Part shown: positions 44,732-64,000 of the stretch, one piece after another
How positions within the stretch are numbered: position 1 is the stretch's first letter
How the letters are laid out: each line of letters opens with the position of its first letter
NCBI GenBank assembly: GCA_910585165.1
Contig: CAJUBX010000001.1
Location: 6,247 to 70,246 of the forward strand
Source: an uncultured Oscillibacter sp.
Lineage (GTDB): Bacteria > Bacillota > Clostridia > Oscillospirales > Oscillospiraceae
Reading direction: 5' to 3'
DNA: 64,000 bases
Made by a program: the position numbers and the translations under genes
The notes under the pieces: model-generated
The model's database searches: none
Told to the model about the DNA's origin: nothing
Seen by the model: the letters and a program-made list of their open reading frames with translations, nothing else

Positions 44732-45187
44732 ATGGAAAGACCCAATCATACGCCGGCCGGTCCCTGCGGCCCAGGAATGGGCACGCTCCCCGCGTGCGCG
44801 CCGCTGGCGTTTCCCTATATTCCCATGCAGGAACAGAACCCGCCCCGTTTCAGCCGGGCGGAGGCTTTACAGGCTGGCACCCTGTTCCCCGGCCTGGACC
44901 TGCCCTTCAAGGCGGCCATTCAGGCGAAGACCAAGCTCTCCAACACCGCCATGGTGGAGCTGATGGCCCTGGATTTCGCCATCAAGGAGCTGAACCTGTA
45001 TTTGGACACCCATGCGGACGACCAGGAGGTCCTCCAGCTCTACTGGTCCTATATTAAGCTGGCCAAGGAAGGGCGGGAAAAGTACGAGAAAATGTACGGT
45101 CCCCTGACAAGCACCGATTTGACTCCGGAGGACGGCTACGCCTGGCTGAAAGACCCGTGGCCCTGGGACGTAGGAGGGAATGACTGA
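44732..45187 (+). CDS. Spore coat proteins CotJA and CotJB fused in one ORF
   Basis: The N-part LAFPYIPMQ...LFPGLDLPF is CotJA-like. The C-part LMALDFAIKELNLYLDTH...PWPWD is CotJB-like. Confidence 0.75.
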   Translation: MERPNHTPAGPCGPGMGTLPACAPLAFPYIPMQEQNPPRFSRAEALQAGTLFPGLDLPFKAAIQAKTKLSNTAMVELMALDFAIKELNLYLDTHADDQEVLQLYWSYIKLAKEGREKYEKMYGPLTSTDLTPEDGYAWLKDPWPWDVGGND

Positions 45188-45378
45188 TGTTTGTTTATGA
45201 GAAAAAGCTTCAATACCCGGTGAAGGTCAAGAACGCCAACCCCAAACTGGCGGCGGCCATCATCTCCCAGTACGGAGGACCTTACTCCATCAGACTACGA
45301 AAAGCCGGAGCAAGTCGCTCCGGCTTAGACTTGTTTATTCAGAAAATACTTTGCTCAACTCCACGAAACAACCACTGA
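45187..45378 (+). pseudogene. cotJC: 5' fragment of cotJC (Mn-catalase-like spore coat protein), interrupted after codon 32
   Basis: MFVYEKKLQYPVKVKNANPKLAAAIISQYGGP matches the conserved CotJC N-terminus. From about 45283 the frame reads unrelated sequence to a stop at 45378. Confidence 0.8.
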
Positions 45379-45910
45379 GTACATTGACCTTTGCTACGTC
45401 TTCCCGTCCATAGTCTTCATGGATTTTGAGGGAACCGCCGCCGTCCTGTAAAAACACCTGTACGGCCTTATTTTCCGGGTCTACAATCCAATATTCCCGG
45501 ACCCCGGCCCGCTGATACAAGCCTAGCTTGATAAGCCGATCATGCCGGCGGGTAGAAGGTGAGAGAATTTCAATCACCAAATCAGGGGCGCCCTTGCACC
45601 CGTGTTTGTCTAGCTTGTTGCTATCGCATACAACGGACAAATCCGGCTCGACCATCGTGTCAACATCTTCCGGAGCCTCCCCGTCCCGCTCGAAAAGCCG
45701 GACGGCAAACGGGGCCGCATATACTCGACATTTCTTTCCATCTAGGAAGTTGTAAAGCTGGGCAAACAGTGCTCCGCTAATCTCCTGGTGAGTTCTGGAC
45801 GGCGGGGCCATCATAACGGCCTCTCCGTTGATAATTTCAATACGCTCGTTCTCTTCCCATGAGAGGCAATCTGCGAAGGTATACCGGGCCTTTTCCGCTG
45901 GTAGTGCCAT
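45335..45910 (-). CDS. Uma2 (DUF820) family restriction-endonuclease-fold protein
   Basis: YELINGE-like IEIINGEAVMMAPP, PDLSVV, APDLVIEILSPST, REYWIVDP. Confidence 0.85.
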   Translation of the reverse strand: MALPAEKARYTFADCLSWEENERIEIINGEAVMMAPPSRTHQEISGALFAQLYNFLDGKKCRVYAAPFAVRLFERDGEAPEDVDTMVEPDLSVVCDSNKLDKHGCKGAPDLVIEILSPSTRRHDRLIKLGLYQRAGVREYWIVDPENKAVQVFLQDGGGSLKIHEDYGREDVAKVNVLSGCFVELSKVFSE

Positions 45911-46025: not shown

Positions 46026-46223
46026 CTAGTTCTGAGAACTTGTATCCCTTGCTTTACTGCACTCAAAAAACTCAGCTTTTCCCCGGAAAAGAGCGTTCAG
46101 ATATGTTGTTTTCAGCCATGTTGCCAGTCTGCGTCGCTGCTCATCATCCAGGTCGTCGGTGTTTACCAGCTCATCCCCGATATGTACGAAGGATACCGTC
46201 TTTATCTCCTGCTTCTTAGCCAC
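46026..46223 (-). CDS. Hypothetical small protein
   Basis: The second GTG has good spacing to GAAGGGGAG. No family recognised. Confidence 0.45.
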   Translation of the reverse strand: MAKKQEIKTVSFVHIGDELVNTDDLDDEQRRRLATWLKTTYLNALFRGKAEFFECSKARDTSSQN

Positions 46224-46260
46224 ATGGCCCACCTCCCCTTCTCAGAGTATTCTCATGGGG

Positions 46261-46617
46261 CTATGGCTTATGACCGTAACGGATTTCCGGCAGCCAGTCA
46301 TACCGCTTTTCAAATGGAACGAAGTCGCCAGTCTCTCCGCAAATACGTTTCAGGGCCTCATCCATTTTCGCTCTGGCATAGTCGGCCTCCGGGTTCTTCG
46401 TCAGTGCATCAAAGAACTGGTCATAATACCGCCCCCAGGCGTCCAGCACCTTCTTCAGCCGAGCATATCCGAACACGTCCTTACCCATGACCTCCGGGTC
46501 ATTCAGTGTGAAGATGAGGGTATCCGTCATGTACTGCACGAAGGTCTGTCTGGTGGCATCCTGGAGCGTTCGCTTCTTTTCCTCTTGGCGGGCCAGGTAG
46601 TCGTTTTTCTTTCCCAT
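46261..46617 (-). CDS. Hypothetical protein (118 aa)
   Basis: ATG after GAGGTG. Abuts its neighbours. Confidence 0.55.
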   Translation of the reverse strand: MGKKNDYLARQEEKKRTLQDATRQTFVQYMTDTLIFTLNDPEVMGKDVFGYARLKKVLDAWGRYYDQFFDALTKNPEADYARAKMDEALKRICGETGDFVPFEKRYDWLPEIRYGHKP

Positions 46618-46625
46618 GGCACACC

Positions 46626-46880
46626 TCACACCAGATACCGGCACATGAAGTTGCCGAAGCTGTCGAAGTCGGACCAGTCGGCTGTATCCTCCTCGTCCGC
46701 GGCCACGGCCTTCCACAGCTCCCGGATGTAGCTGTCATAGCTGGCGGTATCTACGTCGAGGTCGTAGTGGAGGCAGTACGCTGTCCACAGCATCCTGAAG
46801 CGGTCGCGGCAGATGTCCTCGTCGAAGCAGCTCTGCGTGGCGAAGGATACTATGAACTTAAACTCAGCATTTCTATCCAT
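46626..46880 (-). CDS. Hypothetical acidic protein (84 aa)
   Basis: ATG after GAGGAGG. Confidence 0.55.
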   Translation of the reverse strand: MDRNAEFKFIVSFATQSCFDEDICRDRFRMLWTAYCLHYDLDVDTASYDSYIRELWKAVAADEEDTADWSDFDSFGNFMCRYLV

Positions 46881-46891
46881 CGTTTTCCTCC

Positions 46892-47425
46892 TCAGCTTCC
46901 GGTGTTGAAGCTCACCCCGGCGAAGTCTTCGGCGCTCAGGACATACTCCCCAGCCTTCCACGCCTGCTCCACCTTTGACTTGGCCTCCTCCCAGCTCGCG
47001 GCCTCCACATGGACCACGCGCTTCAGGTGCTCCAGGATAACGATTTTGTACCGGCGGATCACTGGCGGTATCACCGCAGTAGCTCTCTCCACGAGCCCGC
47101 TCAGGATGAGGTCATCTTTCCGAAGGTCAAGGATATGGCTCTTGTCGCAGGGTTCCTCGCTGGAAGCATCCCTCAGCAGCTCCTCATTCATCTCCTGGCA
47201 GAACTCGACCACCTCCCGGATAGTGTAGGGCTGGTCCGTGCTGTATCCGTACTGCTCCTCCTCTTCGGTATCGTGCAGAGCCATCTGGAACTTCTCATCG
47301 GACATCAGGGCAAAGCCATGTCCCTCTATGTAGCCCAGCACGATGTCAGCTTCCACCAGATTCATCTGGAGGCCCTGGCGGACCGAGACGGCCACCAGGT
47401 TCTCAGCTTTCTTTATTTCAGTCAT
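46892..47425 (-). CDS. Hypothetical protein with a C-terminal DpnD/PcfM-like module
   Basis: The C-terminus YKIVILEHLKRVVHVEAASWEEAKSKVEQAWKAGEYVLSAEDF resembles DpnD/PcfM. Confidence 0.55.
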   Translation of the reverse strand: MTEIKKAENLVAVSVRQGLQMNLVEADIVLGYIEGHGFALMSDEKFQMALHDTEEEEQYGYSTDQPYTIREVVEFCQEMNEELLRDASSEEPCDKSHILDLRKDDLILSGLVERATAVIPPVIRRYKIVILEHLKRVVHVEAASWEEAKSKVEQAWKAGEYVLSAEDFAGVSFNTGS

Positions 47426-47861
47426 CGCCTTCACCTCCGGTCAGGAAAAAACCCACATTGTCCTCAAAGTTGTCTACGGCCTCCGGCAGATACCGGCGGT
47501 AGGCCGGTCCGTTGCTCTTAAACCAGACGTGCGTGGCAAGGAAGTTGAAGTCTCCCTCAATGTCATCGTCCGGGTGCAGGTCACGCAGGGCTTCCAGCTC
47601 TTCAGCCTCCTCTGGCTCCAGTTTCTCATGGATACCTTGAGTCGCTTCCAGCAGGAACGTCCTTTCGCTGATAGCCTCTTTTATGTTGATGATGCCGACG
47701 CTGACGGCCGCTCTCAAAACATCGTTGAAGTCGAGGCCCTCACGGGGCCAATCCATCTGGTCAAGAATCTCATCCCACCCGTAACCGATACGGTCGAGAA
47801 TCTCCAGGTCTGCGCTGCCGCAGGACAGCATCTCGCAGAGGAGACTTTGCGCACCAGTCAT
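47418..47861 (-). CDS. Hypothetical acidic protein (147 aa)
   Basis: ATG after GGAGGG. 8-nt overlap with the next gene. Confidence 0.55.
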   Translation of the reverse strand: MTGAQSLLCEMLSCGSADLEILDRIGYGWDEILDQMDWPREGLDFNDVLRAAVSVGIINIKEAISERTFLLEATQGIHEKLEPEEAEELEALRDLHPDDDIEGDFNFLATHVWFKSNGPAYRRYLPEAVDNFEDNVGFFLTGGEGDD

Positions 47862-48019
47862 CTGTTTCCCTCCAATCTTATACTTTGTTAAATATTTCTC
47901 TGGACCCTGCATAGGGACCGCCTGAGAGCCTCTTGGAGCGTCCTTTTCTGTCCGCGAATGGTGTAAGTAGTCTGCGGGCGGGCCCGTCTTGTAGAGGCTT
48001 AGACGGGCTTATTTCAACA

Positions 48020-48208
48020 TCACTTGTAGCTCCAGCGGCCGACCTTGTTGCCGTTCACATCCATGACGGGACCGTCGGTACGCCCAGCCTCCAGCTCACA
48101 GATGACATCCAACAGAATACGGCGCACCTCCGTGGTGTAGGGGTCCAGGCCCTCTCCATTATCATCCCGGAACACCGCTCCGACGGTCTTGATTTCCAGC
48201 TTGAACAT
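48020..48208 (-). CDS. Hypothetical small protein (62 aa)
   Basis: ATG after GAGAGGTGA. Confidence 0.5.
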   Translation of the reverse strand: MFKLEIKTVGAVFRDDNGEGLDPYTTEVRRILLDVICELEAGRTDGPVMDVNGNKVGRWSYK

Positions 48209-48212
48209 CAGA

Positions 48213-48371
48213 TCACCTCTCATCTACGTTCCATTCCTCGAAAGTGGCGTTCAGACCACGGCACTTTCGGTTCTCAGCCGTACAGCGGTCTTCTGCCAGC
48301 TCTGGGGTTTTGCATACAGCGATGATGTGGTGGTCGTCACGGCAACCGCCGGTTACGATATACACTTTCAT
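48213..48371 (-). CDS. Hypothetical small protein (52 aa; below the ORF-track cutoff)
   Basis: ATG 7 nt after GAGGAGG. Hand-translated as MKVYIVTGGCRDDHHIIAVCKTPELAEDRCTAENRKCRGLNATFEEWNVDER. It fills the gap exactly. Confidence 0.45.
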   Translation of the reverse strand: MKVYIVTGGCRDDHHIIAVCKTPELAEDRCTAENRKCRGLNATFEEWNVDER

Positions 48372-48385
48372 ATCAGCTTACCTCC

Positions 48386-49150
48386 TCAGTATCCGTACTT
48401 TCCGAGGTGAGCTTCCTGCATCGTTTCCAGGCAGTCCTCCAGGGTATCTCCGGCATCCGTCCTGATGGTCCAGTGTTTGTTGTAGCCTCTGAAGTGGCGG
48501 AGCAGATGCAGGAGGCCAGGGTCGTTACGGTCTACCCACAGGGAGAAGTTCGGGAAGTCGGCCCCGGACGGGGAATGGACGAACCTCTTCTCTCCATTGG
48601 CTCGGTCCTCCTTCAGCTCTCTGGCCTCCAGGTCATAGACCCATTTGTAGACAGCCTCACGGCGGGCGGTCATCTCGGAATCAAACTGAAACTCGTCGCC
48701 ATAGTTGTAGCCATCTGGTCCGTCGCAGGAATGGTCTTCCGGGAACACACGGTAGCCGCCGAGGTCTGGAACCACCTTCACGGCGTCGAAGCTGGCTCCA
48801 AGACTATTCACGAGACGCAGGATTTCCGCCTCTGTGTACTCGAAACGTGCGTTTTTCTCGACCGTGCCGCGTTTTGAGCCACGTTTCTTAGGCAGCATGA
48901 CATGGTGCTTGTTGCAATCGTCGTTCGGCTTGTCATCCGTAATATAGTGGCAGTAATCCACAAAGCCGGTGTACTGCCACTGGAAAATCTGAGGGCTGCT
49001 ATGCTTTGTCCGCTCTGTTCCGGTGATTTCCAGGTACACCGCCCTTCCATCATCGAGATGGAAGGCGGTACGGATACGGCAGTTGCCGACGGTGGACTTG
49101 CTGATGTCCGCACCGCTCCAGCCGGCACCCTCGAAGTACAGGGTTTTCAT
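48386..49150 (-). CDS. Hypothetical protein (254 aa)
   Basis: ATG after GAGGAGGTG. ATGA overlap with the upstream gene. Confidence 0.6.
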   Translation of the reverse strand: MKTLYFEGAGWSGADISKSTVGNCRIRTAFHLDDGRAVYLEITGTERTKHSSPQIFQWQYTGFVDYCHYITDDKPNDDCNKHHVMLPKKRGSKRGTVEKNARFEYTEAEILRLVNSLGASFDAVKVVPDLGGYRVFPEDHSCDGPDGYNYGDEFQFDSEMTARREAVYKWVYDLEARELKEDRANGEKRFVHSPSGADFPNFSLWVDRNDPGLLHLLRHFRGYNKHWTIRTDAGDTLEDCLETMQEAHLGKYGY

Positions 49151-49527
49151 GCGGGCACCTCCTCTCTCTCAGCGAGCCGTCTGGCCGCTTCCTTCAGGAT
49201 GCTGACACCCTCGGAGTTGCTCGCAGAGGTGATGCCGTGCTTCCGGTACAGCATCCAAAGCCCCTGGCCGGTGGGCCGACAGTCGATTCCGTCGCACACA
49301 AAGCCGGAGGCCCAATCCCAGCGGCTCATGTCCGTGTTGTTCAGGTGCGGATCGCTCTTCAACTTCTCCCGGATGGTCTCCATCGGGAATGGGATGAAGC
49401 GGGCCACCTCGTCCAGCCCGCCGAGGAACTCAATGGCCCTCCCGTAGATGTCGGAGTGGCTCAGCCGCTCCCCAGTCTTTGCGTCGATGTAGCAACACTT
49501 GACGCCGATAGCTTCGTGAATAGTCAT
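49147..49527 (-). CDS. Hypothetical protein (126 aa)
   Basis: ATG after GGAAGGGGAG. Coupled to its neighbours. Confidence 0.55.
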   Translation of the reverse strand: MTIHEAIGVKCCYIDAKTGERLSHSDIYGRAIEFLGGLDEVARFIPFPMETIREKLKSDPHLNNTDMSRWDWASGFVCDGIDCRPTGQGLWMLYRKHGITSASNSEGVSILKEAARRLAEREEVPA

Positions 49528-49763
49528 TACTCTCTCCCCTTCCTGGCTTCCGCCATGATAGCATCCATGTTCTTCTCCAGCAGGAACATCATGTCCTGCT
49601 TCCGGCTCTCCAGCATCCCCCTCAACTCAGCCTGGACCGCCTCCGGGGTGATGCTGCGGCAGTTACAGTGAACCGCCAGAATCAGGTCATCGAAGGTCAG
49701 ACCGTCCAGCAGACTGTCGCTGGTCACAAGGTCCTCACCCAGCTTCCATTCTCTCTCAGGCAT
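49527..49763 (-). CDS. Hypothetical protein (78 aa)
   Basis: ATG after GGAGGTG. Confidence 0.5.
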   Translation of the reverse strand: MPEREWKLGEDLVTSDSLLDGLTFDDLILAVHCNCRSITPEAVQAELRGMLESRKQDMMFLLEKNMDAIMAEARKGRE

Positions 49764-49911
49764 CTTTGCCCACCTCCAAAATCTCGCCGGTCTTCTCATC
49801 GGCATCATATTCCCAGGCTTTCTCGCAAGCCTTGTCGATGGCCTCATCCTCCGACTCAGCCTCGACGGTCAGCGTCGTGATGGACGTGACCTTCACGGTG
49901 AACTCCTTCAT
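49756..49911 (-). CDS. Small DpnD/PcfM-like protein (51 aa)
   Basis: MKEFTVKVTSITTLTVEAESEDEAIDKA. ATG after AAGGAGG. Confidence 0.5.
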   Translation of the reverse strand: MKEFTVKVTSITTLTVEAESEDEAIDKACEKAWEYDADEKTGEILEVGKDA

Positions 49912-50600
49912 CAGATTGCCTCCTTGCGGCCCTGGGCGTGGGCGGCGGCCTGCACAGCCGCCACCCTGCCCAACAGGTTCCGACAATACTCGGCGGTTCT
50001 GGAGTGGTCCCTGTGCTGCTTAACTGCGTTCTGGAACTCCTTCCCGGTCGGATCGTCAGCATACTTCACGATTTCAGCGGCAGCCTTCCCAGCCAGCTCA
50101 TCCGCTTCGGTGGCCCGGTCACTTGCGAGCTGGCGGAGGTCTTCCAGGTCATCGGGACTCAGGACCATGGCTTCCAGCTTCTTGATGAACTCCTGTGCCT
50201 CATCCCTTGCCCGCTGCCTCTCGGCGATTTCCTGTCGGAGTTTTTCTTGCAGCTCCTTGACCTGGGATTCCAGGCTCTCGGCCCTGCCCTTCATGCTGTC
50301 CCCGAAGTCATTCTCGATGTTCTGCTCAGCATCCTCGAAGCACCCCTGGAAGGCGGTGGCGAGGTAGCTCTGCGGGCCCAACTCCTCGACCATCTTCCTG
50401 ATGGCCGCCAGCGTGTCCCGTTCCTGCTGCTTGGTGGCGCAGGTGTTCTCATGGTGAAGCTCAATGTTGGTGACCGTGAAGCCGAGACCCTTGTTCATGG
50501 AGGTGAAAAACTTGCGAGCAGCGGCCTCGGTGCGCTCTGTAATGATGGAATCGAAGCTGTCCCCGGCCTCGGTGGTGTAGGTGATTCTGTAATCGTTCAT
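49911..50600 (-). CDS. Hypothetical coiled-coil protein (229 aa), first gene of the P2 array
   Basis: ATG after GAAGGAGGA, 50 nt downstream of the P2 -10 box. Confidence 0.6.
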   Translation of the reverse strand: MNDYRITYTTEAGDSFDSIITERTEAAARKFFTSMNKGLGFTVTNIELHHENTCATKQQERDTLAAIRKMVEELGPQSYLATAFQGCFEDAEQNIENDFGDSMKGRAESLESQVKELQEKLRQEIAERQRARDEAQEFIKKLEAMVLSPDDLEDLRQLASDRATEADELAGKAAAEIVKYADDPTGKEFQNAVKQHRDHSRTAEYCRNLLGRVAAVQAAAHAQGRKEAI

Positions 50601-50655
50601 GGTGCATCCTCCTTCAAAAACTGACCGTCTTGGATAAGTTATTTATCATGCTCAC

Positions 50656-50684
50656 ATTCTAACTTACCGACACGGTAATGTCAA
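50656..50684 (-). promoter_or_regulatory. Promoter P2 with embedded palindromic operator
   Basis: Minus strand TTGACA-17 nt-TAGAAT. The spacer contains the palindrome TTACCGtgtCGGTAA (50664-50678). 39 nt (50655-50693) are identical to 57233-57271. Confidence 0.7.
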
Positions 50685-50794
50685 GTCAAAAATGAAAAAT
50701 AGCAAAATATTTTTTGCTATCCTCAAAACGCTTGATTTCCAGCACTTTTGAAGGAGCTGCGTGGCTTTTTCAGAAAATACGCACAGCTTCGCAA

Positions 50795-50809
50795 AACTTA
50801 CCGACACGG
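50795..50809. promoter_or_regulatory. Third (imperfect) copy of the operator
   Basis: aacTTACCGACACGG matches the operator plus 3 flanking nt. It lies about 130 bp upstream of the P2 operator, just after the stop of the HTH gene. Confidence 0.45.
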
Positions 50810-50819
50810 AAAGCTCCGA

Positions 50820-51293
50820 CTACTTCATCTCGCTCTCCGGGAGGCCGCTGTAACGCGCCCAGAACCGCTTAGACGCGTCCTTGCTCATGGGGGATATGTG
50901 ATTATAGCCGCCCTCCCAAACCTGGTAGTAGGCCACGAAATAGGCCCCTGACGGGTCTTTGAAGAGCTCCATGTAAAACTCGTCGCTGTGCTCCGCCTTG
51001 CTGGTGCAGAGAGACTCGGATTTGCTGGTGTCATAGGTCACACCCTCTACCATCTGAACCACCCGCGGGCTGCTGCTGTTCCCCAACAGGGGGAGCTCCG
51101 TTCCGGCGGCGCTGACCATCTTCACGGTGTATCCGGTCATACTCAGGGCTTTGGTCAGCTCATCGAAGGTCAGGGTGTCATTCTTCAGCCGGCCGCTGAG
51201 GTTCTGCGGGCTCCAGCCCATGAACTCGGCCAGCTCTCGCCGGGTCTTGCCTGCGCTCGCCAGGGCGGAGCGCACCATATCAGACGCCTTCAT
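50820..51293 (-). CDS. HTH (XRE/Cro-like) DNA-binding protein, last gene of the P1 array
   Basis: N-terminal KTRRELAEFMGWSPQNLSGRLKN helix-turn-helix, followed by a C-terminal domain of unknown function. Confidence 0.65.
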   Translation of the reverse strand: MKASDMVRSALASAGKTRRELAEFMGWSPQNLSGRLKNDTLTFDELTKALSMTGYTVKMVSAAGTELPLLGNSSSPRVVQMVEGVTYDTSKSESLCTSKAEHSDEFYMELFKDPSGAYFVAYYQVWEGGYNHISPMSKDASKRFWARYSGLPESEMK

Positions 51294-51735
51294 CTTCCTC
51301 TCCTCTCTCATCCAGCAGCCACTTCAGGCACTCGCGCTTGGTGTCGAAGTCCTCCGTCCAGGCATCGCCATCTCTGTTGTCTATGCCGGTAACTTTTGAG
51401 CCTACCACGAAGAACAGGCCACGGGGTCTCCGAGTGTCGATAACTTGGCATCCCTGAATCTCGCTGATCTCCATAGGCTTCGCGGCCATCTTCCGGGGGC
51501 ACCACCTGGGAACCGTCTTGATGTCGGGCTTATCGCTTGACCCTTTGGTGTATCCGATGAAGCAGGCCATGCGGTGGCTGCTGGGGCAAATCAGCTCAAA
51601 GGCAGAATGGGCATCCGGGTGATTGCAGAAGCAGTCACCTCTGGGCTTTGCCATGTGGCTATTGTTTCCGGTGTACCTTGCGCGGCCGCTCATTTTCATC
51701 ATGGGGCAGGTCGCACAGCGGATGTCATCTTTCAT
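51280..51735 (-). CDS. Cys-rich hypothetical protein
   Basis: ATG 6 nt after GAGGTG. CATCP...CFCNHP...CP...RWCP. Confidence 0.55.
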   Translation of the reverse strand: MKDDIRCATCPMMKMSGRARYTGNNSHMAKPRGDCFCNHPDAHSAFELICPSSHRMACFIGYTKGSSDKPDIKTVPRWCPRKMAAKPMEISEIQGCQVIDTRRPRGLFFVVGSKVTGIDNRDGDAWTEDFDTKRECLKWLLDERGEEDEGV

Positions 51736-51745
51736 TTCGTTCACC

Positions 51746-52075
51746 TCAATTCTTACTAATCAGGCCATAGAGCTGCCCAACGGAGACAATATCACGGATA
51801 AGTGCCTCTGTGAGCTCGGCTTTTTCTTCCTCGGTTGTGTAGAGCATAACCCTCCGTGCTCTGCTCGCAAAATTGGACATCTCCATCTTCAGGTTAATAT
51901 ACGCATTGTGCTCGTCCGCAGCTTCCGCCGCCGCTCTGAGGGCGGCAGCGATGTCCTCATTTCTGCGGAACGCACTATCATACCGGCTTGCCCCGGTCTC
52001 CTGGTAGTTCTGGAAAGCTGTGTCGGCCTTCTTCTGGAAGCTATCGGCCAGCTTCATCAGCTCTTTTTTGCTCAT
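51746..52075 (-). CDS. Hypothetical helical protein (109 aa)
   Basis: ATG after AGGAGGGAG. Confidence 0.55.
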   Translation of the reverse strand: MSKKELMKLADSFQKKADTAFQNYQETGASRYDSAFRRNEDIAAALRAAAEAADEHNAYINLKMEMSNFASRARRVMLYTTEEEKAELTEALIRDIVSVGQLYGLISKN

Positions 52076-56829: not shown

Positions 56830-56961
56830 ATCATTACCTCCCGGCCTCTCGGCCTGTTTCATTCGTTTTCGGGGACTGACTTCCCACGACTGCGGGCCTT
56901 CGGCTTGCTCCCGGTATTCCGGGAGCTCCGCAGTTTCGGCCGGTTGTCATCCGGCTCTCAT

Positions 56962-57171
56962 TCAGGCGGGCAATTCAGATGCTGTGGTGGGATTTCCGTA
57001 TTTTTCTTTCACCCACGCATCCGTCACGGCCTCCAGCTTCTTCAGGAGTTCCTTACTGTCAACCTTGTAATCTTGGCAAATTTTTTTCGTCAGCCCCTCC
57101 AGCCCAATGAAAATGCCCTCCAGCGCATAGATTTCGTCAATCGTCAAGGTGTCGATTGTCATAACTTTCAT
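56962..57171 (-). CDS. Hypothetical small protein (69 aa), first gene of the P1 array
   Basis: First ORF downstream of P1. Confidence 0.5.
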   Translation of the reverse strand: MKVMTIDTLTIDEIYALEGIFIGLEGLTKKICQDYKVDSKELLKKLEAVTDAWVKEKYGNPTTASELPA

Positions 57172-57203
57172 CCTTTCTGGCCTTTCAGCCCTCTGCTCAA
57201 ATT

Positions 57204-57220
57204 CTTACCGTCTTGGTAAG
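57204..57220. promoter_or_regulatory. Second palindrome in the P1 leader
   Basis: CTTACC-gtctt-GGTAAG between the P1 -10 box and the first ATG. A degenerate copy, ctgaccgtcttggataag, lies at 50621-50638. Confidence 0.4.
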
Positions 57221-57233
57221 TTTCAGTGTCATC

Positions 57234-57262
57234 ATTCTAACTTACCGACACGGTAATGTCAA
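57234..57262 (-). promoter_or_regulatory. Promoter P1 with embedded palindromic operator
   Basis: Minus strand TTGACA-17 nt-TAGAAT, with TTACCGtgtCGGTAA (57242-57256) in the spacer. Identical to P2. Confidence 0.7.
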
Positions 57263-57351
57263 GTCAAAAATTGATTTTTTTCAAAATATTTTTCTCAATC
57301 AACTTATGGCTTTATTTCCACTATTTCTAATGTATATTGCCAATTTTGAGC

Positions 57352-57417
57352 AAAAAAAGAACGCCCTCTCACCAGATGCAGGAGACTCTTGCCTGCTCCG
57401 TTCTGGTAAGAGGGCGT
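57352..57417 (-). terminator. Long-stem rho-independent terminator inside the non-coding region
   Basis: acgccctctcaccaga-(25 nt)-tctggtaagagggcgt. On the minus strand it is followed by TCTTTTTTT. Confidence 0.6.
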
Positions 57418-57831
57418 ATTTCACACTGTGGTTCGTTTTAAGGGCGCTTTCCATATTGGTAAGTATTTTTATGGGTGAACAGCTTAGGACGCTGTTACGG
57501 GGTCTTATTTCGATTGTAGAGGGCATTTGTGCTTTCCGTGTTGGTGCGGATGCAATCCGCACCGGAAACATCCCTGAAGCGGTGTCTGTGGGTGACGGAT
57601 TTTGGTGCAAAATCGTCTTCCAAGGAAAACAGGTCTTAGACGGGCTTAGAATGGGCTTAGACGCGTCCTTTCTTGGGGTGGTATAAGTATATTCTGAACA
57701 AATCAACTTCGATTTACCATTTTTTCCCGTTCCGAAAATCTCAAAAAATCAATAAAAATCAACATTTTCTGGTCTTAAAAGTTGAAATATGGTAAAACGC
57801 ACAATTTTGGCAACTAAATCCGTGCAAAAAC
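57418..57831. other. AT-rich non-coding region with short phased repeats (possible ncRNA, origin or regulatory region)
   Basis: No ORF with an RBS. CTTAGA repeats at 57635, 57645 and 57656; AAATCAA repeats at about 57697-57760; hairpin ggtgcggat-gca-atccgcacc. Confidence 0.35.
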
Positions 57832-57952: not shown

Positions 57953-58285
57953 TTATCTGTTGCGCTTGATGCTGTTAATCTGCTCCATGGTCTGTTTCAG
58001 CTTGTCGAAGCCGTACATAGCAGCGAAGCAGACGAAGAATCCCAGGACGATAGCGCCGACCACCATGTACCAGGTGACGGGGACGCCGGCGATCTGGCAC
58101 ATGGCGAAGAAAGCCAGCAGCGTGACGGCCATGGCGATGATGAAGGCCAGCAGGTTGGTCGGCAGCTTACCCCAGGTCAGGCCCTTCAGGACCTCGACGA
58201 TGATGTTCGTCACGACCATGAGCACCAGCACCAGGGGCAGGATGACAGAGATGACCGCGGGGATGTTCTGAATAATGGCTTCCAT
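57953..58285 (-). CDS. Putative holin
   Basis: 110 aa, three TM segments, basic C-tail. Directly downstream of the endolysin gene. Confidence 0.65.
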   Translation of the reverse strand: MEAIIQNIPAVISVILPLVLVLMVVTNIIVEVLKGLTWGKLPTNLLAFIIAMAVTLLAFFAMCQIAGVPVTWYMVVGAIVLGFFVCFAAMYGFDKLKQTMEQINSIKRNR

Positions 58286-58297
58286 GATTTTTCCTCC

Positions 58298-59638
58298 TCA
58301 AATCTTCTTACAGTAGTCCAGGGACACCCAGCCAACACCAGACTTCAGCTTGCCCCAGAGGGTAGCGCCCTCGCCGGTGGCCTCGCTGACGATGGTGTAG
58401 GCACCGGGCTTAATGACGCTGACGATTGCGTTGTTGGTGCCGGGACCTTTGCGGATACGCAGGTCGGTGGCGGTGATGCGGACCTTGTACGGGACCTTGC
58501 TTACCGGAGCAGCGGGGGCCGGAGACGTAGCAGAGGCCCCCAGCTTGACGTTCACCTTTGTGGCGATGTCGCCGAGCCGCTGGTAGATGTAGTCCCCAGG
58601 ACAGGCTTTGTTGGCGAACCAGCGGTGGACGGTGAGGTTTTGCTGGTCCACCTTGCCCACCAGATTCTTGTCCCCCTTCCACAGCAGCTTCTTGATGCCG
58701 TTCCGCCGGCAGATGTCGGCACACAGCTCAATCAGGGCGGCCATAGCCTTGTCGGTGATGGCGTAGGGGTGCGTGGTGTCGCTGGCAACCTCGATGGTCA
58801 CGGCCTGGTAGTCATTGGACTTGCCGGAGATGCCATTGACGCGGATGGGGGTCTTTACTCCGTTCACAGTCTTGTAACCACCGGTACACCAGGAGCGGTC
58901 CTTCTCCTCGACACACAGGCCGATGGAGCCGTCATAGCCCACAACGTAGTTGCAGGACGCTCCCTTGCTGCTGGGCTGGAACACCTCGCACCCACGCTTG
59001 GCCGTAACCTGACCGACGAAACAGTGGATGGTAATGGTATCGATGGCGTGGTTACGATTGGCTGTTCTGTTCGGAGAAATCATCCGCACAGTTGCCAAGG
59101 GGCTGTTGGAAAATGCCATACTGCTGTCACTTCCTTTCTTCGCATACTTGTCGAAATACTTCTGGCCGTAGCTGGCCCGCCGGGTCTTGGCAGCCACACT
59201 CTGGTCCGCCGGACGCTCAAACTGGAGAAATACCGCGTCAGAGGCGGTCTGGACGCTGGAGGTGGTCTTCAGGACGTTCAGCACCGCCTTATAGCCGGTA
59301 AACAGCTCCTGCATCAAGAATCCGAGCTGAATCTCCAGGTCCCCGATGCTCTTCCCAGCGGCCTTGGCATAGGCCAGCAGAGCCGCCTTCCGGCTCCAGT
59401 ACGTCCACTGGCACAGGCCATATCCGGCCTTGTCGTGGATGAAATTACCATAGGTCCCGTGGTCCACCATCTCGGTGTACTCAGCGTCAGCCATGCCCAG
59501 CTTGCCTTCGTAGCTATTCTGGAGGTTGTCCGGGCGCAGGCCGCTCTCGGCATACAGGTTCCCCATCAGGCCGGCGGCACCAGCATCAGTGAGGCCCTGG
59601 GCCTTCAGATAGCTCCAGATTTTTTCCTCTGTATTCAA
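58298..59638 (-). CDS. Endolysin: phage tail-lysozyme-like N-domain + Amidase_2 (PGRP) + SH3
   Basis: TTG start after GAAGGAGGAG. GLMGNLYAESGL...GLCQWTY; TIHCFVGQ... amidase region; C-terminal YKVRITATDLRIRKGPG SH3-like. Confidence 0.85.
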   Translation of the reverse strand: MNTEEKIWSYLKAQGLTDAGAAGLMGNLYAESGLRPDNLQNSYEGKLGMADAEYTEMVDHGTYGNFIHDKAGYGLCQWTYWSRKAALLAYAKAAGKSIGDLEIQLGFLMQELFTGYKAVLNVLKTTSSVQTASDAVFLQFERPADQSVAAKTRRASYGQKYFDKYAKKGSDSSMAFSNSPLATVRMISPNRTANRNHAIDTITIHCFVGQVTAKRGCEVFQPSSKGASCNYVVGYDGSIGLCVEEKDRSWCTGGYKTVNGVKTPIRVNGISGKSNDYQAVTIEVASDTTHPYAITDKAMAALIELCADICRRNGIKKLLWKGDKNLVGKVDQQNLTVHRWFANKACPGDYIYQRLGDIATKVNVKLGASATSPAPAAPVSKVPYKVRITATDLRIRKGPGTNNAIVSVIKPGAYTIVSEATGEGATLWGKLKSGVGWVSLDYCKKI

Positions 59639-60052
59639 TTATCCTACTCCTCCTTCTTCCCCGCCCTCATCGGGCGAATCATCTTCAGTCCGGCTTTGGC
59701 CGAACACCACGCCTTCGTTATGCTCGAAGATATTCTCAACCACCTTCAGGCCGCTCATGCCCAGGAGCGTGATGATGGCCTGGCGGCTCAGCTCCTCAAC
59801 CGGGAACGGCTGCTCCAGCACGATGGTAGAGTAGGTGGCGATGCCATAGGACCACGACACCCAGAGGATTGCGAACGTCTGTGCGGTGACGAACAGGAAT
59901 CTCGTAATCGACTGGATGATATTAGGGTGCTCCCGGCCAGACCGCAGCTCCTTCAGCCGCTTCCGCAGGTGGCGGATGGTGGCCTCGCAGTACAGGATGC
60001 CCAGGGCAATACCGACCACCAGAGCGCCGGCAGCGATCAGGGCTGTCTTCAT
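59639..60052 (-). CDS. Phage membrane protein (137 aa)
   Basis: N-terminal TM plus two further TM segments and an acidic tail. ATGA coupling. Confidence 0.55.
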   Translation of the reverse strand: MKTALIAAGALVVGIALGILYCEATIRHLRKRLKELRSGREHPNIIQSITRFLFVTAQTFAILWVSWSYGIATYSTIVLEQPFPVEELSRQAIITLLGMSGLKVVENIFEHNEGVVFGQSRTEDDSPDEGGEEGGVG

Positions 60053-60486
60053 GGCATCTGCTCCTTTCGGGGGGCCGAGCTGACCTGGAGGAAGTCATGT
60101 TTCTTCAGGCGTTCCTTGTAGACCTCCTGGATGTTTTCGATTGCTAGGACAGCCCGGTTGTTCGGATACTCAGGGTGCTCCCGGCAATAATCTTCATAGG
60201 CATCTATCTCGGCCAGCACCTCAAAAAACTCCTCCTGCGTGTGGCCGATGTCCCGCAACAACTCATTGTTGAAATGCAAGATGCGGGCTCGGTGTCCATC
60301 AGCGGTGCGCCGGTCATCCATGGTGATGTGGTCATCCAGCTTCTTGATGACCTCAGCGTTGACAGCCCGGCCGATGGCTCTCGCCAGCCAAGACCAGGGG
60401 TTAATCTTGACGGGGGCAATCTGCATAAGGGTCATCAGAACCAGAAGCAGACCGCCCCCGCCAGCTAAAAGCTCTTGGACGTTCAC
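60049..60486 (-). CDS. Phage membrane-anchored protein (145 aa)
   Basis: GTG after AGGAGGAAG. One N-terminal TM segment. Confidence 0.55.
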   Translation of the reverse strand: MNVQELLAGGGGLLLVLMTLMQIAPVKINPWSWLARAIGRAVNAEVIKKLDDHITMDDRRTADGHRARILHFNNELLRDIGHTQEEFFEVLAEIDAYEDYCREHPEYPNNRAVLAIENIQEVYKERLKKHDFLQVSSAPRKEQMP

Positions 60487-60862: not shown

Positions 60863-61044
60863 TACCCCTCACCGCCTTCCAGCAACTCGTACACATCGCA
60901 GAGAGCCATCTGCGTGTCGGTGAGCTGCCCCTCCAGGCTCTCGACCTTGGCCCGGAGCTGCTCGTTCTCCTCCTGGAGCTGCTTCCGGGTCTTTTCCTTC
61001 TGCTTCTCTTTCACAGAATCCTTCCTGATTACATTCAGTCCCAT
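60862..61044 (-). CDS. Small coiled-coil protein (60 aa)
   Basis: ATG after AGGGAGG, overlapping the stop of the fibre gene. Confidence 0.5.
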   Translation of the reverse strand: MGLNVIRKDSVKEKQKEKTRKQLQEENEQLRAKVESLEGQLTDTQMALCDVYELLEGGEG

Positions 61045-62915
61045 TACTGGAAACCTCCCTGCACAGAATTGATGTAGCCGCCCTCACCGCTGGCCCCGCG
61101 CTCTGCCGTCACTCGGAAGTTGAACGCAAAGCCGTTGGCGGCGGTCTTGTTCTCAAAGATGTGGTTCGCACCGCTCTTCACCTCAGCGGTACAGTCCTCC
61201 CATACCGGGGCGTCATCCTTGGCGTTGTTCGTGACCTCCACCGTATAGCGGGCATCCGCCGGGATGAAGCCGGCCACGGACAGGACGCAGATGGTGATGA
61301 GTGCGTCCGCCTCCATCGGGGCCTCCAGCGTAACAGAAGCCCCGGTGACTTCCTTCTTGAAAGTCATGGAGTGAACGGTGCTGGCCTTCCCGTCATTGGC
61401 GGTGATGGTCATGGTATGGTCGCCGTTCAGCAGCTTCATGAAATACTCGCCGTTGACCTTGAAGCTGTTGGAAGTGCCCAGGGCCGCCGTGAAGGTTCGC
61501 TTCGTCACACCGTCGATAGCCTCGGTGACGGAGACCTCATCGCCGTCCACGTCGGACACGGTATAGGACACCGTGAAGCCGGCATCCTTCGTCCCCAGGT
61601 TGCTCCCACTTGGAGAAGTGCAGGCAATCTCCGGGGCCGTGTTGTTGTTCACCGGACGGGACGGCGAGGTCGTATAGCCGCTGTACGCATTGTTGCTGTC
61701 ATAGGCGCGGACCCGATACTTCACGCTGGCCCAGCCCTTCGTGATGGTATCGGTATAGCTCAGGGTGTTGCCGGTGTAGACCACCCCCCACTGGCCGCTG
61801 CCGTCCACCTCCCGTTCCAGGCTGTACCCGGCCAGGTTCCCGTCCACGTCGCTGGCCGCGCCCCAGGTCACGGTAAGCGTCGCGCCGCCCAACACGGTAT
61901 TCGGGACCGTGATACTGGGCGGCGCGGTGGGCGCGTTGTTATTCGTGACCGTTACCTGGTTGCTGGTCTTGTAGGCCGAGGACAGCCCCTCGCTGTCATA
62001 GGCTTTTACCCGGTACATCACGCTGGCGGTGCCAAAAGCCACCGTGTTGGTCGTACTCCGGCTGCTGCCCTGGTACACCTGGGACCAGGATTTTCCGCCG
62101 TCGGTGCTGCGCTCCAGGATGTACCCCTCCAGGTTGCTCTCCTTGTCGGTGCTGGCACCCCAGCTCACGGTGATCGTGCTGCCGCCCTGGATGCTGCTGG
62201 GGACGGAGATGCTGCTGGGCGCTGTCGGAGCCGTGTTCGTGTTTACGGAGCCGTCGTCAGAGACCAAGAGAGAAGAGGGAAGTACCAAAGCCGGGCGAAT
62301 GGCATACCCACCGCCGGAGCAGTAGCTGCTGCTCCAGTCGCCATTCGCGCGGACGCGCAACGCGCGCGTCGCGCCGCCGCCGGAGCTGCAGCACGGAGAA
62401 CGGAGCCACCAGTCGGCGGCCGAACCATTCAGGTTGGCTATACGCTTGCTGTCGGTCGTGGCACAGCCGGAGAAGTAAGCCAGACACGCACCATCATTCG
62501 GGATATAGGAGTGCGTACTCGAAGTCCAGTTCACTTCCGGGCCGGACAGCAGGAACACCTTGGCCGAGAGGCCATTGGCGCCGCTGTTGATGGGCGTGGG
62601 ATTCGCACCGCTGCCGGGGCGGTACGGGAGCTTCACCTGCTTAATCTGATTTCGGATGTTGGCGTCGATCAGGTTCAGGAACGTGTTGTTCAGGTAGCTG
62701 TTGATTTCGCTGTTGGCATAATCGTTGACGTTGCTGCTATGCCACCTTTTGGCCTCATAGCAGTCTTTCATCAACAGCCAGGTTCCATCGCAGCTCGCGT
62801 CATACAGAGCCGAGGGCTTCCCCTGGTGGACCACAATGAAGTCCCGCAGAGTGCCGTTGACCTTCAGCTTCACGATACTGCCGATGGTTTTGTTGCTAAG
62901 GGCAACCGATGCCAT
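61044..62915 (-). CDS. Tail-fibre/receptor-binding-like protein: N-terminal lectin-like (WWLRSP...IRPAL) domain, two FN3 repeats, Ig-like C-terminal region
   Basis: Start at MASVAL after AGGAGG. Two copies of APTAPxSIxVP...WGA(S/A)xD...GY.LER...YRV(K/R)AYD, which are FN3 repeats. Confidence 0.8.
   Translation of the reverse strand: MASVALSNKTIGSIVKLKVNGTLRDFIVVHQGKPSALYDASCDGTWLLMKDCYEAKRWHSSNVNDYANSEINSYLNNTFLNLIDANIRNQIKQVKLPYRPGSGANPTPINSGANGLSAKVFLLSGPEVNWTSSTHSYIPNDGACLAYFSGCATTDSKRIANLNGSAADWWLRSPCCSSGGGATRALRVRANGDWSSSYCSGGGYAIRPALVLPSSLLVSDDGSVNTNTAPTAPSSISVPSSIQGGSTITVSWGASTDKESNLEGYILERSTDGGKSWSQVYQGSSRSTTNTVAFGTASVMYRVKAYDSEGLSSAYKTSNQVTVTNNNAPTAPPSITVPNTVLGGATLTVTWGAASDVDGNLAGYSLEREVDGSGQWGVVYTGNTLSYTDTITKGWASVKYRVRAYDSNNAYSGYTTSPSRPVNNNTAPEIACTSPSGSNLGTKDAGFTVSYTVSDVDGDEVSVTEAIDGVTKRTFTAALGTSNSFKVNGEYFMKLLNGDHTMTITANDGKASTVHSMTFKKEVTGASVTLEAPMEADALITICVLSVAGFIPADARYTVEVTNNAKDDAPVWEDCTAEVKSGANHIFENKTAANGFAFNFRVTAERGASGEGGYINSVQGGFQ
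62286..62411 (-). other. Candidate DGR variable region (VR) inside the fibre gene
   Basis: Codons for WWLRSPCCSSGGGATRALRVRANGDWSSSYCSGGGYAIRPAL. Runs of NNC codons (TGC TGC AGC TCC GGC GGC GGC ... AGC AGC AGC TAC TGC TCC GGC). The segment is adenine-poor. Confidence 0.5.
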
Positions 62916-62937
62916 GATAAAACCTCCTGTTGAAAAT

Positions 62938-64000
62938 CTACATCCACGGCGGTACGTCGTCAGGCAGCGGGACAGAGCGGAGCGGGGCCGCCTGGGGCAG
63001 CTCCTCACCTCTCTTCCTGCGGATACACCGCGCCTGCTTCAACCTCCGCTTTATGCGGACCACATTGGTCGAGTTGATTTTCCGGCGCGGCTTGATTTCC
63101 TCCCCGATAATCTCACTCACCTGGGCAGCGTACTTTTGCCGTAATGCGTATGTGTCACCGTGGGCCGCATGAGCGTCCCACCCGCCGAAGCCTTTGATGA
63201 TGGCTTCTTTCGTCACTTTCCCCGCCGGGTACGCCTCCCTCCAATACTTCACCCTGGCGTTGATGTCCTGGACCTTATCCCGGCGGAGCTTTTGGACCAC
63301 CGCGCCGGTCTCGGTCAGGTAGGAGTGGAAGCCGAGGAAGTCGATACCGTTCCTCAGCGGGAAAATCCCAGTCTTTTCGTTCAGCTCCAGGCGGAGGTCA
63401 TCCATCCACCGCTCCACATCCTGCAGGAGCTCCTGTAGCTCTTTCTTGGTCCGCGCTATGATGTAGAAGTCATCCATGTAGCGGCCATAATAACGAAAGC
63501 CTCGCACTTCCTGGACGTAGTGGTCGAACTCATCCAGGAATAGCAAGGCCAATAACTGGCTGGTCTGATAGCCCAGGGGCAGGCCGTCCGTCTTGTCAAT
63601 GTAGATGCACAGCAGGTCATAGAAGGCCATGTCTACACCGCGCTTCAGGAACAGGGCCCGCAGCTTGGCTTTCAGTATGTTGTGGTCTATCGAAGCAAAG
63701 AACTTTCTTACATCGCATTTCAGGACCCAGCCATCAGCCGATCCTGTCCGGCGATAATACTCGGCCATGTGCTGCTTCAGGCGCATAAGGCCGTCGTGAG
63801 TTCCCTTCCCCTTCTGGCTGGCATGATTGTCCCGGATGAAGCTGTGCGTGATTGCATCGTACAGCACGTTATCCGTGGCAGCATGGAGCACCACCTTGTC
63901 TACAAAAGCTGGTGCTTGAACGAGCCTTTTCTTGGGCTCGTAAACAAAGAAGGTCTCAAAATTACTGGGGGCGTAGGTCCTATTCAGCAGTTTTCTGGAC
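62938..64000 (-). CDS. DGR-type reverse transcriptase (5' end outside the window)
   Basis: The reading frame stays open to position 64000. Motifs FVYEPKKRLVQAPAFVDKVVLHA, LKCDVRKFFASIDH, GLPLGYQTSQLL (SQ in place of QG), YGRYMDDF, GIDFLGF. Confidence 0.85.
   Translation of the reverse strand, partial: SRKLLNRTYAPSNFETFFVYEPKKRLVQAPAFVDKVVLHAATDNVLYDAITHSFIRDNHASQKGKGTHDGLMRLKQHMAEYYRRTGSADGWVLKCDVRKFFASIDHNILKAKLRALFLKRGVDMAFYDLLCIYIDKTDGLPLGYQTSQLLALLFLDEFDHYVQEVRGFRYYGRYMDDFYIIARTKKELQELLQDVERWMDDLRLELNEKTGIFPLRNGIDFLGFHSYLTETGAVVQKLRRDKVQDINARVKYWREAYPAGKVTKEAIIKGFGGWDAHAAHGDTYALRQKYAAQVSEIIGEEIKPRRKINSTNVVRIKRRLKQARCIRRKRGEELPQAAPLRSVPLPDDVPPWM

Follow-up and report, generated by a model that had tools for sequence, protein, structure and literature searches.

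A prophage within the spore-coat gene cotJC of an uncultured Oscillibacter, and the insertion hot spot to which it appears to belong

In a 64,000-nucleotide stretch of DNA from an uncultured Oscillibacter sp. (contig CAJUBX010000001.1 of GenBank assembly GCA_910585165.1, positions 6,247 to 70,246; hereafter the window), the gene for the spore-coat protein CotJC begins directly behind a fused cotJA/cotJB gene and breaks off after 32 codons at the edge of a prophage. Is this short piece the leftover of a lost gene, or is it one part of a gene that the phage has split and that can be rebuilt, perhaps when the cell forms a spore? The best overall explanation, which we regard as fairly probable, is that a temperate prophage integrated by a large serine recombinase (LSR) splits cotJC reversibly and is likely to be excised at sporulation.

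The broken cotJC gene and its left junction

The junction between host and phage DNA comprises the following features.

44732..45187, plus strand: cotJA/cotJB fusion gene of the host, 151 aa (Pfam CotJA, E 2.6e-12; CotJB, E 1e-25)
45187..45282, plus strand: 5' fragment of cotJC, codons 1-32 (Mn_catalase profile match and tblastn)
45283..45378, plus strand: 31 phage-derived codons and a stop codon that extend the truncated cotJC frame; no CotJC similarity
45302..45326, no strand assigned: GC-rich hairpin in the phage arm beside the left attachment site attL (folding energy -20.7 kcal/mol, z -4.0)
45335..45910, minus strand: Uma2-family gene, the last gene of the prophage (Pfam Uma2, E 5e-37)

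The stop codon of the cotJA/cotJB fusion (TGA, 45185-45187) and the start codon of cotJC (ATG, 45187) overlap by one base. The open reading frame (ORF) that starts there (45187-45378; 63 aa) matches the Pfam family Mn_catalase at profile positions 1-32 of 284 only (E 6.4e-8) and corresponds to residues 1-32 of an intact, 198-aa CotJC protein with 94% identity (tblastn E 1.6e-14); the 64-kb window contains no CotJC match besides this stub (45187-45282). Similarity to CotJC stops at 45282, and phage DNA, which is almost entirely organized on the minus strand, begins at 45282/45283 and continues past the end of the window. The phage-derived extension of the cotJC frame overlaps the 3' end of the oppositely oriented Uma2 gene, and its DNA (45283-45378) matches this phage arm as it occurs in another host species at 99.4-100% identity. 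None of 200 shuffled sequences folded as well as the hairpin that lies within it, which is probably the terminator of the Uma2 gene and, at the same time, a barrier to read-through out of the cotJ operon.

A sequence-only reading of the window had already described this arrangement, and the profile searches and comparisons uphold it in each of its parts: the cotJA/cotJB fusion that shares one base with cotJC (45187), the 32-codon CotJC N-terminus, the end of similarity near 45283, the run of 31 unrelated codons through a stem-loop into the 3' end of a Uma2 gene, and the phage-type DNA to the right, for which an endolysin, a fibre-like gene and a reverse transcriptase (RT) now speak. It had also stated that the remainder of the window holds neither the 3' part of cotJC nor a recombinase; indeed, no recombinase domain is encoded by any gene called in the 45.3-64 kb interval.

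The window stems from a metagenome-assembled genome (MAG), and a chimeric contig that fuses host and phage DNA during assembly or binning would produce just such a break. The identical junction between cotJC and the phage (99.9-100%) is found on at least six contigs that come from independent samples, MAGs and both ENA and Logan assemblies. Since the same junction thus recurs on contigs of other MAGs and in independent assemblies made with different assemblers, it is not chimeric. Furthermore, the Uma2 protein, whose exact sequence occurs in 776 indexed blocks of the contig collection, adjoins the cotJC stub in all nine places listed, in a second host species (host B), and metagenomes that contain the lysogen include ERR13927808, SRR9052928 and ERZ14651334 besides the host-B samples. 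Interrupted cotJC alleles occur as well in records titled as isolates (for example L015, L027, L029, L034, L062, L070); cultured strains among them are Oscillospiraceae bacterium 38-13 (L029), A57_49 (L015), C18_42 (L027) and Dysosmobacter Sow4_B12 (L062). The chance that the split is an artefact is, in our estimate, negligible.

The far end of the prophage, its attachment sites and the empty allele

The window contains the left 18.7 kb of the prophage. A longer contig, CAQFIQ010000001.1 from a mouse-gut MAG (GCA_948787235.1), matches it (subtracting 38,680 from a contig position gives the window position) and carries at least 37 kb of the prophage; a walk along it by exact-protein look-ups reached position 121,257 of 127,274. 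In other assemblies the same phage (98-99.96% identical) ends in a 491-aa LSR that is situated directly upstream of cotJC codons 29-198 and stops 45 nt before the called cotJC 3' ORF. The most compact example is an 8-kb deletion derivative (L171, identical to L185), whose left arm is 99.96% identical to window positions 45283-47684 and in which a single contig comprises, in this order, cotJA/JB, the 32-codon stub, the Uma2 gene, four small genes shared with the window, exonuclease-like and regulator genes, cro-like and cI-like genes, an endonuclease-like gene, the 491-aa LSR and cotJC codons 29-198. Full-length copies of the phage (L182-L186) possess the same right end, and contig NODE_239 of ERZ14867580 (L186 and L187) joins structural genes that are 98-99% identical to those of the window phage to the junction between the LSR and the cotJC 3' part.

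The recombinase contains Resolvase, Recombinase and Zn_ribbon_recom domains (precomputed Pfam matches) and is distantly similar in sequence to the structurally solved integrases of TP901-1, SPbeta (SprA, YokA) and A118 (PDB; E 1e-7 to 1e-10); XisF is among its best NCBIfam matches, under the cut-off of that family. The distances from attL to the Dit gene on CAQFIQ010000001.1 (27.3 kb) and from the Dit gene to the right attachment site attR on NODE_239 (35.2 kb) add up to about 62 kb, which places the predicted attR of the window copy about 19 kb past the end of CAQFIQ010000001.1. In a shorter variant of the phage (L182), the terminase gene is found less than 10 kb from attR, and the prophage is predicted to span roughly 50-62 kb. 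The earlier proposal that the missing part of cotJC and a recombinase both lie beyond position 64000 hence holds for the other assemblies of this phage, in which both were found; on CAQFIQ010000001.1 itself, that end was not reached.

Further searches for it returned other species or other alleles. Queries with protein P0171 and with P0248, the LigA protein, retrieved other species, which were informative on the hot spot described below but not on the right junction of the window; a search with the C-terminal 166 aa of CotJC detected many 3' fragments, none of them from the species of the window; and the best 120 matches to full-length CotJC were intact genes only. In some hosts, further mobile elements have accumulated beside this phage: L181:1-6629 encodes an additional LSR (559 aa, DUF4368), accompanied by a tyrosine integrase and a helicase, and in L192:12289-20663 a mobilizable element with a relaxase/NikA gene and a 587-aa LSR occupies cotJC site 2 (see below) directly after the phage attR.

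The attachment site could be delineated by comparing attL in two hosts with attR in four.

45271..45281, no strand assigned: attL core TACGGAGGACC, codons Tyr29 to Pro32 of cotJC

With a slash marking the proposed point of exchange, attL reads CAG TAC GGA GGA CC/T TAC TCC in the host of the window and CAG TAT GGA GGG CC/T TAC TCC in host B. In two hosts attR reads GGTG TAT GGG GGA CC/, followed either by A GAT GGA or by G GAC GGC; variants of it are present in two more diverged phage copies, and in at least four hosts attR is fused to the same phage arm. The common core, TAYGGNGGNCC, is imperfect, 11 bp in length and without long direct repeats. A short, imperfect core of this kind is typical of serine integrases. 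Because host-specific bases reach CC in attL and begin immediately behind it in attR, the most parsimonious crossover point is at or beside the CC of Pro32, with the neighbouring GG as a further possible position. Crossovers at TA or GG inside the core were also considered; with CC, no additional substitutions have to be assumed between phage copies that are nearly identical.

Joining attL (CAGTATGGAGGGCC/TTAC) to attR (GTGTATGGGGGACC/AGAT) gives a product that encodes ...QYGGPDGE..., and recombination between the two sites restores ...QYGGP/DGELG... exactly and in frame, a result that for the window's own host would follow if its right end resembles that of the other copies. The right phage arm at attR reads ...CATTTCCGTCGTCTATTGGTGTATGGGGGACC, and the cotJC sequence in L006 past the site reads NGACGGGGAGCTGGGGGCTTCC; the phage attachment site attP is predicted as ...GGTGTATGGGGGACCTTACTCCATCAG....

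L006 is a contig of the same species; its host flank shares 99.3% identity with that of the window, and its cotJC gene continues uninterrupted across the insertion point, at least as far as residue 54. By its sequence, it is an unoccupied bacterial attachment site (attB). In its intact form, CotJC is a 198-aa protein whose gene follows cotJA/JB with the same one-base overlap, and 37 related species possess it in this form. Both an att core deduced from the aligned junctions, which restores the reading frame, and an uninterrupted allele in relatives had been anticipated by the sequence-only reading, and both were found. The 96-nt stub (window 45187-45282) differs from the empty allele (L006:799-894) at nine positions, and all but one of these differences are synonymous, in contrast to the approximately 790 nt upstream of the stub, which are identical between the window and L006. 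This burst of divergence at the junction might stem from recombination between strains or from phage-associated transfer of flanking DNA.

These data bear on the simplest alternative, namely that the stub is a decayed remnant of cotJC that happens to lie beside an unrelated prophage, while a functional copy, if there is any, resides elsewhere. The stub is all that is visible in the window, as such a remnant would be. Decay does not account for a break at exactly the same codon in many hosts, for matching 3' fragments that start with the same YGGP core beside an LSR, for the empty allele of the conspecific L006, or for the presence of both cotJC halves on one contig (L171/L185 and L092), and this alternative, largely refuted by these findings, is highly improbable. 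For L092, an apparent match to CotJC residues 8-198 turned out to be a spurious tblastn extension; the true shared core in this case is the 20-bp sequence CAGTACGGGGGGCCGGACGG. As judged from the left junction and from the right ends of the other copies, cotJC is very probably split in a reversible manner by LSR-mediated integration, with its 3' half at the far end of the prophage.

cotJC as a target of many elements and the case for excision at sporulation

How general this situation is was assessed by scanning one genome per species with the CotJA/JB protein, which yielded 80 loci (L012-L091) in records titled Oscillibacter, Dysosmobacter or Oscillospiraceae. Among the 77 informative genomes, cotJC is intact in 37 and interrupted in 40 of these Oscillibacter/Dysosmobacter species. 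Counted at the first break of each species only, and with L019 and L032 placed at site 2 from their junction sequences, the interruptions are distributed as follows.

Site 1, aa 32: 4 species genomes
Site 2, aa 62-66: 19 species genomes
Site 3, aa 136: 14 species genomes
Site 4, about aa 176: 2 species genomes
Other break, aa 150: 1 species genome

The insertion sites lie within the most conserved motifs of the Mn-catalase family (QYGGPDGE, TDIGTEELGH, AAEQKA, HFQRFGE). In three of the genomes (L028, L030, L081) cotJC is cut at two sites, and on metagenome contigs (L176-L179, L192) site 1 is occupied together with site 2, 3 or 4 of the same gene; up to three elements are found within one cotJC gene. 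The LSRs encoded by these elements fall into at least four lineages that are only 23-31% identical to each other; one of them is used at site 1, two at site 2 with opposite placement, and one at site 3. The elements themselves comprise complete phages, a relaxase-bearing mobilizable element, LSR cassettes of 3.5-6.9 kb with one to a few cargo genes, and a 2.3-kb insertion without a recombinase; the cargo of the small elements includes a transporter, response regulators and a pilin-like protein. On contigs that encode an identical LigA protein, cotJC can be empty, occupied at site 2 or occupied at site 3, which indicates that the elements are polymorphic within species. Products of interrupted genes are also common in sequence collections: the protein collection contains many fragments of 70, 128, 140, 163-164 and 172 aa, some of them on hundreds of contigs, and 27 of the 29 viral contigs with a CotJC match in IMG/VR carry a fragment only, often at the contig end. 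By these sequence comparisons, the phage of the window is one instance of a clade-wide, multi-site insertion hot spot in cotJC, which the sequence-only reading had not noticed.

One locus of the survey has a different geometry. In L022:3557-6866, a cotJC 3' fragment and a site-3-type recombinase are located, inverted, upstream of cotJA/JB; recombination between the att sites would invert this segment instead of excising it, and the arrangement could represent a real inversion or a misassembly of the MAG.

Whether the split gene is ever put together again can be approached through the selection that acts on its pieces. L028 and L030 represent two species that carry the same two elements, and this single pair, the only usable one, is what the selection test rests on. 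Their cotJC fragments exhibit dN/dS values of 0.01-0.03 at a dS of 0.70-0.86, while the genes of the elements show a dS of 0.82-1.06 and a dN/dS of 0.12-0.15. The similar dS values of fragments and elements suggest that the elements were inherited from the common ancestor of the two species; if this is so, a gene in three pieces has been under strong purifying selection, which implies that it is reassembled. Furthermore, no interrupted 5' fragment contains a premature stop codon before the junction, the listed 3' fragments are open to the native C-terminus, and most degenerate elements (3.5-8 kb; L171 with 8 kb, L092 with 6.9 kb, L029 with 3.5 kb) keep an intact LSR.

The cotJ operon also carries a candidate sporulation-type promoter.

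44672..44679, plus strand: -10-like element CATACAAT of the sigmaE/sigmaK type, 60 nt upstream of the cotJA/JB start

Despite the divergence of the flanking DNA, the motif CATAnnnT is present between positions -110 and -20 of the cotJA/JB start codon in 61 of 79 related loci, and it is found at about -60 in nearly all of the loci displayed; the copy in the window is the element listed above. No -35 element was recognized upstream of cotJA/JB. CATAnnnT resembles the -10 region of promoters read by the mother-cell sigma factors sigmaE and sigmaK when judged by the consensus of B. subtilis. In B. subtilis, cotJ is sigmaE-dependent. Other genes in the neighbourhood have a sporulation flavour as well: an amidase adjoining the locus is CwlD-like and a nearby sigma factor SigH-like (both score under curated cut-offs), and YunB and CotH genes are located near cotJ in related species.

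On the strength of the known precedents, of the selection on the cotJC fragments and of the sigmaE/sigmaK-like -10 motif, we judge the chances that excision is coupled to sporulation to be evenly balanced. The course of events that we envision would begin with the phage-encoded LSR, which very probably integrated the prophage into the host cotJC gene at codons 31/32; the window's own copy would end like the other copies do, with the LSR and then the cotJC 3' part. Excision would presumably require the LSR plus a recombination directionality factor (RDF); besides induction of the prophage, its most likely occasion would be the terminal differentiation of the mother cell. The mother cell would in this way rebuild cotJC for the assembly of the coat, while the forespore would retain the prophage, as is the case for SPbeta in spsM.

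Several observations weigh against this reading. Oscillibacter type strains are described as non-spore-forming. The right junction of the window copy lies outside the DNA available on CAQFIQ010000001.1, which ends about 19 kb before the predicted attR, and neither attP nor an excised circle was found: all five metagenome matches to the right phage arm were attR, and IMG/VR gave none. No sigmaE/sigmaK-like CATAnnnT motif is shared upstream of the 27 LSR genes scanned, and a PHROGs search gave no excisionase or RDF match for the genes that the 8-kb derivative retains. The known RDFs are small proteins that share no common ancestry, and in SPbeta and the C. difficile skin element the control of excision operates via a small, unconserved RDF; the missing RDF and promoter matches are consequently weak evidence. 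Among 13 site-2 elements, synonymous positions are close to saturated, and the divergence of the LSRs does not track that of the hosts (r 0.36 for pS); in L019 and L020, for instance, the CotJA/JB proteins are 98% identical and the LSRs 50%. This mismatch between recombinase and host trees indicates that most insertions are recent and horizontally acquired, and intact fragments alone are hence no proof of selection after insertion. In addition, the site-3 insertion in L031:6956-9196 (also present in L145-L152) is devoid of a recombinase, and B. subtilis strains without CotJC in the coat have no apparent defect (PMC12122855), so that loss of cotJC might be tolerated.

The L031 insertion consists of nothing but a gene for a 746-aa protein with PAS, histidine-kinase and response-regulator parts; both flanking cotJC pieces are readable, and the exact truncated product of this type of insertion was found on 23 contigs. 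It may represent a fixed, non-excisable split, or it may be served in trans.

Many of these observations would be expected if the elements were ordinary prophages and mobile elements for which the motifs of cotJC are dependable, growth-neutral att sites. Lysogens would then lack CotJC, excision would take place only upon induction, and either spores would form without CotJC or the host would not sporulate at all. The most conserved motifs of the protein would provide ideal attB sequences for a broad host range, and this explanation fits the fast turnover and horizontal mobility of the elements, the lack of recognizable RDFs and of sporulation-type promoters at LSR genes, the existence of a recombinase-less insertion (L031, L145), and the dispensability of CotJC for the gross properties of B. 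subtilis spores (PMC12122855). It is at odds with the very strong purifying selection on the three-piece gene of L028 and L030, whose elements are as diverged as the genes of the hosts, and with the openness of the fragments, the 5' pieces lacking premature stops and the listed 3' pieces being readable to the native C-terminus. Nor does it readily explain why degenerate elements of 3.5-8 kb retain an LSR, why four unrelated LSR lineages converged on one sporulation gene of 198 codons, or why characterized elements of the same architecture excise during sporulation. Taken together, we consider ordinary lysogeny rather unlikely as the whole explanation.

Returning to a reversible split that is resolved in the mother cell, we tentatively propose a further step, which seems possible to us although we would not call it probable: cotJC might serve the Oscillospiraceae as a landing pad with several sites that is dedicated to developmental rearrangement of DNA, with up to three excisions per mother cell needed to rebuild the gene. 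If this were true, coat assembly would depend on combinatorial excisions while every element passes intact through the spore, and cotJC would stand as the first sporulation gene with multiple elements, the equivalent in Clostridia of the editing of nif genes in heterocysts; such editing would, moreover, prove to be common in gut commensals.

Only a handful of cases, all from Bacillus and Clostridium, are known in which prophage-like elements are removed from sporulation genes in a programmed manner, and each of them involves one element at one site. What is new here is the target, a spore-coat gene that had previously only been listed, and its hosts, the abundant and poorly cultured Oscillospiraceae of the gut; the scale is unusual too, with about half of the species affected, four sites, four recombinase lineages and several elements that share a single gene. 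Should excision be linked to sporulation, these phages would couple their inheritance to the transmission of spores between hosts, sporulation-coupled genome editing would be routine in gut spore-formers, and the recombinases with their short and defined att sites would constitute an orthogonal toolbox. If it is not, the data still indicate that the conserved motifs of a gene dispensable for growth serve as a shared safe harbour for mobile elements.

The body of the prophage and its relation to known elements

The remaining features of the prophage in the window are the following.

46026..57700, minus strand: about 25 small phage genes with unassigned functions (gene calls and precomputed Pfam hits)
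46892-47425, minus strand: DpnD-PcfM gene, within this block of small genes
48213-48371, minus strand: DUF7336 gene, within the same block
57953..60486, minus strand: lysis cassette, an endolysin gene flanked by small ORFs
58298-59638, minus strand: endolysin (Pfam Phage_lysozyme2, Amidase_2, SH3_3)
61044..62915, minus strand: DUF6273 tail-fibre-like protein, 623 aa (Pfam DUF6273, E 7.5e-31); target gene of a diversity-generating retroelement (DGR) that contains the variable repeat
62286..62423, minus strand: variable repeat (VR) of the DGR, 138 nt, 85% identical to the template
62938..64000, minus strand: RT of the DGR (Pfam RVT_1, E 2.9e-19); 396 aa on the matching contig, 5' end beyond the window

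The block of small genes is mosaic relative to the host-B copy of the phage, and the small ORFs on either side of the endolysin gene are possible holins, as suggested by their position and hydrophobic sequence. The prophage encodes a DGR, consisting of the RT and of a pair of repeats that differ at template adenines. The template repeat (TR) is located upstream of the RT gene just past the end of the window (L010:8414-8551), and 19 of the 21 differences between TR and VR over 138 nt fall on adenines of the template. The VR sits within the DUF6273 domain of the fibre-like protein and not at its C-terminus.

Beyond the window, CAQFIQ010000001.1 carries structural genes for baseplate, PAAR, sheath initiator, tape measure, tube and sheath-type proteins, as well as head and tail genes for a tail terminator, a major capsid protein and cement proteins. 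Other contigs, with copies that are 98-99.8% identical across 11.5 kb, continue with genes for a Mu-F-like protein, portal, terminase and ParB and with a methylase-like gene. The portal and terminase genes are known solely from such near-identical copies in other assemblies, and the same applies, separately, to RecT, cI and cro. In its gene content, the element appears to be a complete temperate phage with virion, packaging, lysis and lysogeny modules and with contractile-tail-type genes. A megablast search of the GenBank phage collection with window positions 45300-64000 found no match, and in IMG/VR the best relative of its Dit protein is only 67% identical, with the exact patterns of the att arms being absent; the phage is hence not represented in these reference sets. 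Two genes of the host flank lie outside the prophage: an XerC/XerD-like tyrosine recombinase on the minus strand (41039-42058), scoring under curated cut-offs, and a 249-aa AAA ATPase (38366-39115) with faint similarity to anti-phage ATPases.

Intervening elements of sporulation genes described to date comprise skin (in sigK), SPbeta (spsM), vfbin (spoVFB), vrin (spoVR), gin (gerE) and yin (yabG); all are inserted into a sporulation gene, most of them encode a serine recombinase, those studied in this respect have an RDF, and they are reported to be excised at sporulation or in dependence on the growth phase (PMC4191935, PMC5595907, PMC10747680). Our literature search found no paper that characterizes a cotJC element or mentions the pattern in Oscillospiraceae, in agreement with the earlier statement that no characterized cotJC case was known; that statement needs to be qualified insofar as a passage of the preprint bioRxiv 10.1101/2021.11.22.469490 already lists cotJC as an integration locus and attributes this to Abe et al. 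2013. The element studied here displays, in part via other assemblies, the insertion inside a sporulation gene, an LSR by the junction, both halves of the gene, a short att core and an empty allele. By these structural traits it is best described as a putative sporulation-gene intervening element, an SPbeta-like case with a new target gene and in a new group of hosts.

SPbeta in spsM, with its recombinase SprA and the directionality factor SprB, is the closest parallel. Both phages are apparently complete and probably active temperate phages that reside in a gene for the sporulation envelope, a mother-cell gene in the case of spsM and putatively so in that of cotJC, both carry their LSR at the end that bears the 3' gene fragment, and both possess short, imperfect att cores that permit a precise in-frame repair. 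The cotJC phage differs in its target gene, in its host (Clostridia, Oscillospiraceae), in its contractile-tail-type genes and DGR and in the lack of a recognizable SprB-like factor, and its excision at sporulation is putative. The skin elements of B. subtilis and C. difficile, vfbin, vrin and yin are likewise recombinase-bearing elements that interrupt sporulation genes, and degenerate, non-infectious derivatives that have kept the recombinase exist among the cotJC elements as well; skin, vfbin, vrin and yin use one site per gene, whereas the 198 codons of cotJC offer four sites to four or more LSR lineages, a single gene can contain as many as three elements, and roughly half of the clade's species are affected. 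The small cotJC elements, which combine an LSR with one or two cargo genes and lack phage genes, resemble gin in gerE of Bacillus cereus (GirC and the 42-aa GirX), a non-viral intervening element with an LSR; their cargo differs from that of gin, and no GirX-like small factor was identified in them.

More distant relatives in terms of lifestyle are known as well. The A118/phi10403S-type phages of Listeria split comK by means of an LSR, and their reversible excision, like that of the cotJC phage, could act as a switch; the trigger in Listeria is intracellular growth, whereas the target of the cotJC phage is a spore-coat operon. In C. difficile R20291, the prophage phi027 lies beside cotG, a CotJC homologue, without splitting the gene (PMC11222575, PMC12122855). 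Finally, the heterocyst elements in nifD, fdxN and hupL (XisA, XisF, XisC) offer a precedent for several elements that are excised in a terminally differentiated cell in order to rebuild genes, although they belong to a different phylum, a different developmental programme and different target genes than the elements in cotJC.

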